A DNA stretch of 5,162 nucleotides. Origin: a virus. Taxonomy: Duplodnaviria > Heunggongvirae > Uroviricota > Caudoviricetes. Numbering within the stretch: the stretch's first letter is position 1; each line of letters opens with the position of its first letter. Made by a program: the position numbers and the translations under genes. The stretch lies in the IMG/VR virus record IMGVR_UViG_2671180574_000017. The stretch is one strand, 5' to 3'. Below are positions 761-4,985 of this stretch, one piece after another. Below the pieces are notes generated by a model, which was not told the DNA's origin, searched no databases, and saw nothing but the letters and a program-made list of their open reading frames with translations.

Positions 761-1213
761 GGAGTTTACTCACATCTGACAAAATCAATATAAACAGCCC
801 CTCCGGAGAGGGGCTGGAGAGTGGCGCTATGTGCCATTGCATGGTGCCGGGTGCCTCCCGGTGAATTCAGTACCAGCACCTGAATCCGCGATTATCCCAT
901 ATACCTACTCGCTGATTGCCCCTCCGCACAGGGGGATTCACCATGCCAGTTTCTTTTAACAAACTCCCCGCAAACCAGACAACAGTCAACCGCCTGAATT
1001 GTGAAGTATTTAAAAATTTCTCCCGCTAACTGATACCCGGCTAACAGTCTGGCGTTTTCTTTTTCAGCAACGGGAAAGCAACAACCACCACACCCGCCAC
1101 CAGCACACCGTCAGCCAGCACTGACATTATCCGGCTGCTGCAATGCCATTCACAAAAACAGTAAGCAATCACTTTTTACCGTAACAGGTGATAATCCAGA
1201 TATGTATCTACCC
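467..1213. repeat. 747-bp duplicated module, copy 1 (100% identical to 3528-4274)
   Basis: Line-by-line comparison shows identity across the full 747 bp at offset 3061; different flanks on both sides in each copy. Confidence 0.9.
796..815 (-). terminator. GC-rich hairpin (AGCCCCTC-CGGA-GAGGGGCT), possible minus-strand intrinsic terminator; also at 3857-3876
   Basis: Perfect 8-bp stem; on the minus strand it is followed by GTTTATATTGATTTTG (interrupted T-run). Confidence 0.3.
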
Positions 1214-2976: not shown

Positions 2977-3528
2977 GTGAAATTATTCAGATTCTCTAAA
3001 GTAAAAATTGCAGAACTGCCAACGCCGGAACATGGACAGGTCGAATATGGTGATACGGAGGTTAACGGGCTGCGTGTCCGTGTAGGTTCGTCTGGTGTGA
3101 AAAGTTTCTGCATTTCCCGTAAGCGTAACGGAAAATTTATTCGTGCAACGCTGGGGCGTTTTCCTGATCTGAGCGTGGATAATGCCAGGGCTAAAGCTAT
3201 GGAACTCCTTGGCGAAGTCGCCACAACGGGGATAAATCCGAACATAGCAAAGCGCACTAACAACAAGGCCATGATAACGCTGAGTGAGGCGATTGACGCC
3301 TACGTAAAAAATCGTGGCCACCGCCTGAAACCCGCCACAGAAAAACAGTACCGCAGCATATTACAGAATTATTCCGGTGACTGGATGGCCCATACCCTCG
3401 CCAGTATTTCCCGCGAACGGGTGGAACAACGGCATAAGGCCATCACTGATGGGGCTGTATGGTTCGGTGCTGATAAAACCACGTTACGGGCTGGGGTTGG
3501 TACAGGAAGCAAGGCACAGGCCGATTAG
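2977..3528 (+). CDS. Tyrosine recombinase / phage integrase, N-terminal fragment (arm-binding and SAM-like domains), 3'-truncated at the module boundary
   Basis: GTG start after a GGTGGGG RBS-like run; the N-terminal ~150 aa shows the typical arm-binding-domain pattern (GL.VRV...G.KSF......GK.....[15 protein letters not shown]...V..GINP) and then a linker ([11 protein letters not shown]...[13 protein letters not shown]); no catalytic domain; the stop codon overlaps the first base of the module. Confidence 0.75.
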
Positions 3529-4274
3529 GAATATCTTTTTCAGTCATATGGAGTAAAATAAAATTAATAATCTGGTATCAATCGGATGCTTTCTTACCTC
3601 CTGAAAGTATATTTACACTGACTCACACAGGCATCATGCTCAATAACAAAGTGCTACCTGTAACCATTTACAACGTAGTACCATTCAATAAAACATTCTG
3701 GAATTCAATCAAAAATAGCCAGGAATGCCCTACAAATACAGATAACGTATTGAATGAATGCTTTAATAACCGTTGCACTCTGCAAATATGTCCTTATGGA
3801 CTAAAACAACAAAGTCCATAAGGAGTTTACTCACATCTGACAAAATCAATATAAACAGCCCCTCCGGAGAGGGGCTGGAGAGTGGCGCTATGTGCCATTG
3901 CATGGTGCCGGGTGCCTCCCGGTGAATTCAGTACCAGCACCTGAATCCGCGATTATCCCATATACCTACTCGCTGATTGCCCCTCCGCACAGGGGGATTC
4001 ACCATGCCAGTTTCTTTTAACAAACTCCCCGCAAACCAGACAACAGTCAACCGCCTGAATTGTGAAGTATTTAAAAATTTCTCCCGCTAACTGATACCCG
4101 GCTAACAGTCTGGCGTTTTCTTTTTCAGCAACGGGAAAGCAACAACCACCACACCCGCCACCAGCACACCGTCAGCCAGCACTGACATTATCCGGCTGCT
4201 GCAATGCCATTCACAAAAACAGTAAGCAATCACTTTTTACCGTAACAGGTGATAATCCAGATATGTATCTACCC
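3528..4274. repeat. 747-bp duplicated module, copy 2 (100% identical to 467-1213)
   Basis: See copy 1; here it lies between the truncated integrase (plus) and a truncated minus-strand ORF. Confidence 0.9.
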
Positions 4275-4622
4275 CAGATGAGTAATCCGAAGTTCATCCA
4301 TACCACAGGTCCTGGCTATTCTGTTGTACTCCTGAACAAGAGCAAATAATTCTGAATTAGCAACCATGAACTCATCGCAAACCCTCTGTATAGCATCACT
4401 ATTCAGAATAATAACGTCTCTTCCCGAAAGACGATCAGGAGTACAGAACAAAACTGTCAAACGGCTGAAGGCCTTTGCTCGTGCTGCATTGACTATATCA
4501 ATACGCTGCCTAAGGATGAAACACCCCGACGCCTCATCAATATTCACTCTACCCACACCATATGAATGATAAATATTTAATGCTGAAAAAACCATTAGAC
4601 CGTATAACAAACACTCAATCAA
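4269..4622 (-). CDS. Hypothetical protein, probably a 3'-truncated fragment (last codon and stop are supplied by the module end)
   Basis: ORF-track ORF (TTG start; internal ATG at codon 10); AT-rich codon usage; no recognisable homology; the frame ends exactly at the module boundary. Confidence 0.3.
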   Translation of the reverse strand: MIECLLYGLMVFSALNIYHSYGVGRVNIDEASGCFILRQRIDIVNAARAKAFSRLTVLFCTPDRLSGRDVIILNSDAIQRVCDEFMVANSELFALVQEYNRIARTCGMDELRITHLG

Positions 4623-4732
4623 TACTTAACAGAACTTTTATTTTTGACAAACATAAAATATTTTCAACAATATCCTGAGCCAGGTATATTTCAGTATAAG
4701 GCTCTGCCGGAAGGAATCTGGAAGAATGAATA

Positions 4733-4809
4733 TGGCGCGCTGTACTGGATTCGAACCAGTGACCGATTGCTTAGAAGGCAATTGCTCTGTCCGGCTGAGC
4801 TAACAACGC
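4733..4809 (-). tRNA. tRNA-Arg (anticodon UCU)
   Basis: Same cloverleaf as 2577-2653, with one acceptor-stem change giving a G-U pair; encoded CCA. Confidence 0.85.
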
Positions 4810-4822
4810 TGAATACCGATAA

Positions 4823-4902
4823 TGGACCGCCATCGGGGACCCGCCCCCGCACCAACAACCCTGTTATCGTGTCGTCTGCTCTTCCTGATAAGCTAATGGC
4901 GG
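4823..4902 (-). pseudogene. Degenerate tRNA-like gene (homolog of the tRNA-Arg UCG at 2667-2743); acceptor and D-arm kept, anticodon arm and T-loop replaced
   Basis: Both termini match 2667-2743 (TGGACCGCCATCGGGGAC ... CTAATGGCGG); the interior is a GC-rich 45-nt segment with no canonical anticodon arm and no TTC T-loop. Confidence 0.55.
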
Positions 4903-4909
4903 TTTGTGA

Positions 4910-4985
4910 TGGTGGCCCTTGCTGGATTTGAACCAGCGACCTGGCGATTATGAGTCGCTCGCTCTCACCACTGAGCTAAAGGGCC
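4910..4985 (-). tRNA. tRNA-Ile2 (anticodon CAU, lysidine-type; ileX/ileZ-like)
   Basis: Manual cloverleaf: acceptor GGCCCTT/AAGGGCC, D-arm GCTC-AGTGGTGA-GAGC, anticodon loop CTCATAA, T-arm GCTGG-TTCAAAT-CCAGC, discriminator A, CCA; closely resembles E. coli ileX as recalled. Confidence 0.85.

Follow-up and report, generated by a model that had tools for sequence, protein, structure and literature searches.

The 223-bp core that occurs three times in the window, i.e., in the whole 5,162-nucleotide stretch of caudoviral DNA analysed here, is almost certainly a gene of the catalogued family STnc100 and not a new kind of element. An all-family Rfam scan assigned the three copies to RF02076 (STnc100), all on the minus strand, with scores of 132.4, 132.4 and 123.6 bits against a gathering score of 47, and the matches, all well above threshold, covered the full model (positions 1–206) at window positions 975–786, 4036–3847 and 2500–2311, respectively. 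The structured noncoding RNA suggested in the original prediction was thus borne out, on the minus strand, by the Rfam assignment together with compensatory changes in helices P1, P2 and P3b, a pseudoknot and the lack of a conserved reading frame. The repeat is real, its status as a structured RNA gene is well supported and its family was already catalogued; naming it gives a name, a strand and boundaries to a sequence that annotation pipelines label as "hypothetical protein". This is indeed its usual annotation in E. coli genomes, where megablast of the segment 780–1030 found it in 2860 of 5426 complete genomes, at up to 12 places per genome. STnc100 is among the most widespread E. coli prophage RNAs and adjoins Shiga toxin genes; students of the family may find useful both the covariation-supported pseudoknot and the placement, inferred here, of variants linked to HUS in the promoter and not in the RNA body.

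The window copies and their known counterparts

Repeat search and direct comparison placed the copies at 796–1018 (copy 1), 2322–2544 (copy 2) and 3857–4079 (copy 3), exactly as had been predicted. Copies 1 and 3 are identical and both lie inside a 747-bp exact duplication (467–1213 = 3528–4274, offset +3061), while copy 2 is identical to copy 1 at 213 of 223 positions, i.e., 95.5% and not the ≈97% originally given. Three copies of more than 200 bp with at least 95% identity cannot have arisen by chance. Within the folded core the sole difference of copy 2 from copy 1 is 844 G>A (plus strand), turning a G-C pair of P1 into a G-U pair on the minus strand; a single 1-nt deletion affects the terminator stem, and all the other differences lie upstream of P1. 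The description of the core as GC-rich within AT-rich surroundings held on the iraM side (GC 0.29–0.34, core 0.53) but not on the DUF3927 side (0.50).

The folded core of copy 1 spans nt 839–946 of the minus strand, as delimited by the Rfam match, a search with R1, a covariance model built in this analysis (91.9 bits over 945–840), the minimum free energy fold and the covariation among relatives. It is followed at 838–786 by a 22-nt linker (838–817), the terminator hairpin CAGCCCCUCUCCGGAGGGGCUG (816–795) and a U-rich tail (794–786), as read from the terminator scan, the Rfam alignment and the fold; the hairpin plus T-run proposed for the minus-strand end of the core was found by the same scan. 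Copy 3 is equal to copy 1, with the folded core at 4007–3900 (132.4 bits in Rfam; R1 91.9 bits over 4006–3901) and the linker, terminator hairpin (3877–3856) and U-rich tail at 3899–3847. In copy 2 the folded core lies at 2471–2364 (Rfam 123.6 bits; R1 88.3 bits over 2470–2365) and the 3' part at 2363–2311, where the terminator scan and the alignment showed the hairpin (2340–2322) with a bulge due to the 1-nt deletion and the tail UUUCUGUG. This copy sits directly downstream of the terminator of tRNA-Arg(tct) (2562–2545), as predicted.

STnc100 corresponds to EcOnc27 of O157 Sakai and sRNA103 of EDL933 (the overlap is reported in PMC12711010), which have helices in common with the window copies and occupy the same lambdoid prophage niche, after Q and tRNA genes (in the Stx2 phage, after stx2B) and before the lysis genes, on the strand of the late operon and with a terminator at the 3' end. 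In Stx2 phage II, stx2B ends at 4455 and STnc100 (4530–4735, 207.7 bits) begins 75 nt after its stop codon, abutting the convergent AsxR (4789–4737). The window variant differs from other STnc100 members in having its own middle segment and in its convergent neighbour, which is iraM and not AsxR or AgvB. In EDL933 eleven STnc100 copies are expressed, one of them confirmed by Northern blot, and family members are expressed in uninduced cultures (PMC5331693); discrete transcripts of family members were detected by Northern blot (PMC5331693, PMC7873438), and overexpression of sRNA103 raised fimZ and espA levels (PMC7873438). According to PMC4104026 and PMC7873438, the moron site 3' of pR' carries convergent pairs of Hfq-bound sRNAs in at least eight Sakai prophages, one such pair being AsxR (EcOnc02) and EcOnc27, downstream of stx2B; Hfq binding of family members comes from PMC4104026 in the form summarised in PMC7873438.

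The anti-sRNAs AsxR and AgvB (RF02703, RF02702) occupy the same moron site as convergent partners of STnc100-type genes (PMC4104026). They differ from STnc100 in length (51–60 nt), strand (opposite) and fold, and membership of their group includes a conserved 3' region of ≈42 nt as a criterion. Searches with RF02703 and RF02702 gave no match in the window at E ≤ 1, and did detect AsxR in Stx2 phage II and AgvB in another locus.

A fourth, diverged member of the family, which did not figure in the original prediction, was observed on the minus strand (2248–2144; 2262–2144 with its −10 element), directly downstream of copy 2. The R1 search scored it at 28.7 bits (E = 2e-4, over 2247–2145), and Rfam STnc100 at 21.8 bits (E = 0.12), below threshold. 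It has an extended −10 TGCTATATT (2262–2254), a P1 formed by 2248–2241 with 2151–2144, a P2 GCCUG/CAGGC, a P3b UGACUCAG/CUGAGUUA, a P4 CCGG-GAAA-CCGG closed by a GAAA tetraloop and a pseudoknot pairing GUAUCGG with CCGGUGC; the IS600 end at 2132 truncates its 3' tail to 11 nt. This core may be of the type of PasD1 and PasD2, Hfq-dependent prophage sRNAs of EPEC E2348/69 with RIL-seq partners (PMC8550237) that are reported as STnc100 structural homologues of common origin (bioRxiv 10.64898/2026.05.13.724894). The neighbours cited for PasD, Q together with LpxR, are absent from the window.

Fold, covariation and non-coding status

STnc100 RNA is shown to be a four-helix junction in which P1 closes the structure, P4 stacks on P1, and P2 and P3b project, with a pseudoknot between the P3b loop and the nucleotides that immediately follow P2. 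Along the family fold, P1 (6–9 bp) is followed by an AAU linker, P2 (5–6 bp, with a UNNGC loop), the 5' strand of the pseudoknot, a hypervariable insert, an invariant GCG, P3b, a CA linker and P4 (CCGGG-AGGCA-CCCGG), stacked on P1. In copy 1, P1 pairs 946–939 with 846–839, the AAU linker is at 938–936 and P2 at 935–920; AUCAGCG (916–910) then pairs with UGCUGGU (878–872) in the pseudoknot, the variable insert occupies 909–890 and the GCG 889–887. P3b pairs 886–880 with 870–864, its loop (879–871) containing the 3' strand of the pseudoknot, and after the CA linker (863–862) P4 (861–847) is stacked directly on P1. The minimum free energy fold of copy 1 reproduced P1, P2, P3b and P4. The four stem-loops listed in the original prediction are real, each being a helix of one fold: the terminator at 796–815, P4 at 847–861, P2 at 919–934 and P3b at 862–886.

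To gather relatives, the 19-mer CACCGGGAGGCACCCGGCA was searched in one genome per species, yielding 120 unique cores from Escherichia, Salmonella, Klebsiella, Enterobacter, Kosakonia, Citrobacter, Pantoea, Erwinia, Rahnella and others; most of the tested relatives in this sample were assigned to STnc100 by Rfam. Covariation was assessed by pair counts on 64 diverse Enterobacterales relatives, with shuffles and slid partners as controls, and gave a strong signal in P1, P2 and P3b. Pairing was found in 95.2% of the cells against 82.8% in the shuffles and 37–50% with slid partners, 17 of 26 pairs were changed on both sides, and the observed values were reached by none of 500 shuffles. The covariation is carried by these three of the four helices. 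Covariation is therefore present, and discrete transcripts are on record for family members (PMC5331693, PMC7873438), these being the two points whose absence would have spoken against a structured RNA.

As to the fourth helix, the relatives were gathered with exact-match patterns, so that the invariance of P4 in the 64-sequence sample is partly by construction. The sole independent check is the second sample, drawn from viral contigs by the 5' motif, in which the P4 sequence was again nearly invariant (ACCGGGAGGCACCCGGCA exact in ≈75 of 89 unique cores); among the diverged members retrieved by the R1 search a few compensatory changes of P4 occurred, e.g., CCGUG/CACGG and UCGGG/CCCGA. Conversely, in the sample drawn by the 3' block, the 5' block GGUGAAUCCCCCUnnGCGGnGGGGC was nearly invariant. 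The middle, by contrast with the blocks, varies in both sequence and length (91–136 nt).

The pseudoknot was assessed by a partner-swap test on 129 sequences with 106 distinct 5' strands. The duplex energy was −8.97 kcal/mol for cognate strands versus −6.04 ± 0.21 for swapped partners, and the longest complementary run averaged 6.43 versus 5.03 ± 0.10. The Rfam structure of RF02076 is drawn without this pseudoknot, which, like the assignment of the first 30 Rfam positions to promoter DNA proposed below, appears to be unreported in the literature searched. A literature search for the conserved sequence blocks returned nothing beyond one primer table. Primers for qPCR of "STnc_100" in STEC vesicles (PMC12370729) match the window variant exactly, at 945–926 and 853–872, in an assay without strand resolution. 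Inspection of 30 diverged members for tertiary covariation between the P2 and P4 loops gave no consistent signal.

Thermodynamic z-scores were −2.6 for the minus and −3.4 for the plus strand, so that energy alone cannot tell the strand; the assignment to the minus strand rests on the terminator, on Rfam and on G-U pairs, which work on this strand only, as in P1 of copy 2.

A small protein, of which the core would be the gene or a fragment, is extremely improbable and effectively refuted. ORFs of 37–42 aa do overlap the core on both strands, and the PGAP annotation shows a partial "hypothetical protein" over it on the plus strand and, in E. coli 042, a pseudogene fragment. Against this, the spacing between the conserved blocks is evenly spread modulo 3 (41/41/38 of the 120 cores), i.e., indels do not favour lengths divisible by three, at most 32 of the 120 cores keep any given frame open, Pfam gave no hit to the small ORFs overlapping the core, and the substitutions are compensatory for RNA helices. 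The codon-like conservation mentioned in the original prediction as evidence for a longer gene was hence not seen, no reading frame being conserved among the relatives.

Putative promoter, terminator and origin of the copies

Upstream of the core of copy 1, a putative promoter can be read at 982–953, based on its sequence and on the enrichment of −10-like elements among relatives: a −35-like TTGTCT (982–977), an 18-nt spacer, TGT (961–959) as extended −10 and a −10-like TAAAAG (958–953). The match is weak, the −10-like hexamer having G instead of T at position 6. The first base of P1, G946, would be the approximate start of transcription in copy 1. In 118 relatives, 84 −10-like hexamers were observed 12–19 nt upstream of the U of UGAAU versus ≈27 expected (≈3-fold), and this pile-up at a fixed distance points to a start at the first bases of P1. 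The candidate promoter of copy 3 (4043–4014), within the exact duplication, equals that of copy 1 and is proposed on the same basis; that of copy 2 (2507–2478) has the same hexamers and a single spacer change (975 C>A), and lies ≈35 nt downstream of the tRNA-Arg(tct) terminator at 2562–2545. Read in this way, the first ≈30 positions of the Rfam model would correspond to promoter DNA rather than to RNA. The Stx2-phage homologue carries TGTTAAAAAAAT where the window copies have the extended −10. According to PMC12711010, variants predictive of HUS occur 90 and 103 bp downstream of stx2B; these positions lie in TTTGTTAAAAAAATTTCG (4544–4558 of Stx2 phage II), just upstream of P1, and the variants probably affect the STnc100 promoter (extended −10/start region) and not the RNA body.

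A simple terminator was found within 120 nt behind P1 in about a third of the relatives, and the window copies have one as well. The hairpin at 795–816 is common to copy 1 and to the convergent, prophage-borne iraM (425–816; the gene ends at 760), an anti-adaptor for RssB according to the PGAP annotation. On the plus strand, that of iraM, no T-run follows the hairpin. Transcripts of iraM may run antisense into STnc100. At the position of iraM, the convergent partner in the Stx2 phage is AsxR.

The further suggestion that the core could be a regulatory leader riding on the phage late transcript was not supported in that form. A pR'/tR'-like unit (5128–5022, minus strand) lies right after the Q stop codon, with TTGATT-17-TAAATT and the hairpin AACCCGCCGCCGAGCGGGTT plus T-run (5048–5029); it is upstream of the tRNA genes, the STnc100 cores being downstream of them. 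This separate unit next to Q, i.e., the true leader, which would yield a short StxS-like RNA upstream of the tRNA genes, indicates that the cores are not a late-promoter leader, in line with their own −10 elements and terminators and with the published uninduced expression. All this favours an independent gene of ≈160 nt, counted from the inferred start, over a late-transcript leader. Given its late orientation within the late operon, the gene will also be traversed by Q-modified polymerase and thus be embedded in the read-through late RNA on induction.

Lambda 6S RNA and StxS resemble STnc100 as short terminated RNAs of the late strand that lie between Q and the lysis genes and are extended by read-through under the action of Q, but this pR'-to-tR' leader sits at Q and STnc100 downstream of tRNA genes. 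Identity with it was rejected, as R1 had no match in the whole lambda genome (E ≤ 5) and the window has its separate pR'/tR' unit. The put RNA of HK022 is likewise a folded phage RNA at or near the transcript start; it is a 70-nt RNA with two stems that binds RNA polymerase and suppresses terminators (PMC9378689). A put-like antiterminator was discarded too, R1 having no match in HK022 (E ≤ 5) and the architecture being different; moreover, an RNA of the STnc100 type stops at a terminator of its own, which speaks against a put-like role.

Phage contigs and E. coli 042 share a gene series on one strand, namely Q, (a methylase-like ORF), tRNAs, DUF3927, STnc100, DUF1737, holin and lysozyme, with a convergent iraM in a subset of these regions. 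The end of Q, pR'/tR', the tRNAs, DUF3927 and DUF1737 are all present in the window, which is a mosaic of lambdoid prophage late-region fragments joined by the 747-bp duplication, IS600 pieces and a truncated integrase. One fragment (5162–4275 and beyond) comprises the end of Q, pR'/tR', tRNA(cat), a decayed tRNA, tRNA-Arg(tct), a 117-aa ORF, DUF3927, STnc100 and part of iraM; at 3528 it is interrupted by a truncated P4-type integrase adjoining half a tRNA. The decayed tRNA, a copy of tRNA-Arg(tcg), lies at 4810–4909 between tRNA-Arg(tct) and tRNA(cat), and its intact version is at 2667–2743. The integrase fragment (2977–3528) retains the Arm DNA-binding domain only, and the half tRNA (2750–2796) matches the 3' 46 nt of tRNA(cat) (4910–4985). 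This looks like the insertion of an integrative element into a tRNA gene carried by the phage. A second fragment (2796–2133) holds two tRNA-Arg genes, STnc100 copy 2 and the fourth, diverged core. A third (1213–43), with IS600 pieces on its flanks, contains DUF3927, STnc100, an intact iraM and the start of DUF1737. The duplication comprises the 3' part of iraM, STnc100 and DUF3927; one of its copies abuts a 5'-truncated IS600 (orfB 1202–2089, end at ≈2132; a second IS600 end lies at 1–42) and the other (3528–4274) the truncated integrase. No complete E. coli genome holds the arrangement of the window, of which at most 63% was covered in one place, and an exact search for the truncated integrase gave no match; the IS600 content may point to a Shigella-like genome. 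The three intact copies and the diverged one are explained by this patchwork of late-region fragments, and the repetition stems from the history of the genome rather than from an array with a function.

Possible modes of action

We consider it probable that the window copies encode independent, Hfq-associated STnc100 sRNAs, each with its own promoter and terminator and acting in trans, whose number reflects the mosaic history. Transcription would start at the first base of P1 from a sigma-70 promoter with an extended −10 and would end ≈160 nt further on at the intrinsic terminator, making an independent small RNA in the lysogen. From the literature on family members, Hfq would be expected to bind and stabilise this RNA, which could then base-pair with mRNAs or other sRNAs and act on them in trans. 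Specificity would come from the hypervariable middle, the 3' linker or both, with the conserved scaffold serving stability or the recognition of a factor; for a trans-acting regulator that draws its specificity from these segments, we judge the case evenly balanced. To our knowledge, no direct target or phenotype has been shown by experiment for an STnc100-type RNA.

The blocks GGUGAAUCCCCCUnnGCGGnGGGGC and (U)CACCGGGAGGCACCCGGCACC are nearly invariant from Escherichia to Pantoea, Erwinia and Rahnella. Such near-invariant blocks around a hypervariable middle would not be needed by a simple base-pairing sRNA and hint at another partner. The invariant blocks, the hypervariable middle and the occurrence outside prophages together suggest, tentatively and with rather less confidence than the independent sRNA itself, that the ≈108-nt core is a conserved scaffold for a specific partner, presenting a variable guide-like segment. 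A more radical version, in which the pseudoknotted core is devoted to binding a small ligand or a factor of the cell or the phage (for example as an aptamer, a protein sponge or a processing signal resembling a tRNA) and base pairing is secondary or absent, seems to us unlikely. It would account for the junction with its pseudoknot, for two blocks that stay nearly invariant around a middle variable in sequence and length, for the continuous P1/P4 stack reminiscent of a tRNA acceptor/T arm, and for members outside prophages (next to KdgM-type porin genes, in arrays alternating with tRNAs, on a Pantoea plasmid). It meets, however, with the lack of a known partner and of a neighbouring protein family common to all contexts, with a P1 that varies between 6 and 9 bp, is followed by no CCA and is recognised neither by ARAGORN nor by the tRNA model, with P4 loops altered in distant members (GAAA, CCAGCAA, UAGCG), and with the failure to find either a conserved expression platform or loop-loop covariation.

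Action in cis on the Q-antiterminated late transcript, as a processing or stabilising structure or as a terminator shielding the lysis genes from upstream tRNA/moron transcription in the lysogen, would agree with an orientation that is always that of the late operon, with the location between Q/tRNAs and holin-lysozyme in phage contigs and with a terminator directly upstream of DUF1737-holin. We nevertheless hold it quite improbable, since the −10 elements lie at a fixed distance across the family, members occur in non-phage settings and in tandem arrays, and a covarying four-helix pseudoknotted domain would be superfluous for a plain terminator; discrete uninduced expression and Hfq binding are moreover reported (PMC5331693, PMC4104026). 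Very improbable, finally, is a repeat that matters as DNA and has no RNA role, be it a recombination boundary of mosaic lambdoid phages or a mobile miniature element: the multiple copies (up to 12 places per E. coli genome), the known mosaic/moron junction and the conserved ends around a variable middle would suit it, but helices and pseudoknot covary, G-U pairs fit one strand only, promoter and terminator are placed around the core, and neither terminal inverted repeats nor target duplications are present.

Two other identities were considered for the independent STnc100 RNA and rejected. The P1/P4 stack, with no linker on the 3' strand, resembles the acceptor/T arm of a tRNA. A tRNA mimic was dismissed, as ARAGORN and RF00005 called only the true tRNAs, P1 is 6–9 bp long with no CCA after it (only 36 of 206 cores have a CCA in the 6 nt that follow P1), and a tRNA gene on the same strand lies within 1.5 kb of only 19 of the 120 relatives. 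A terminator/antiterminator switch of the riboswitch kind was suggested by a resemblance between P2 and the terminator hairpin in the window variant, and was set aside because the terminators of other members are unrelated.

Some further observations concern the family at large. In Kosakonia, Enterobacter and Klebsiella, a variant with a 125-nt core lies 33–200 nt upstream of a KdgM-family porin gene (PF06178; the nearest ORF) at seven loci, in a setting outside any obvious prophage. Arrays of three to seven cores were seen in Citrobacter braakii, in Pantoea and on the Pantoea plasmid pAPP145_2, some of them alternating head-to-tail with tRNA genes, the tRNA starting 4–7 nt after P1. A subfamily of at least seven loci has a different P2 (GCGGCUCAGCGC), and in some members P1 is extended to ≈22 bp; the core is followed in some of its members by a Shine-Dalgarno sequence and an ORF within ≈30 nt, and in others by a conserved single-stranded GCUGUGUGUAGUCUU and a terminator.
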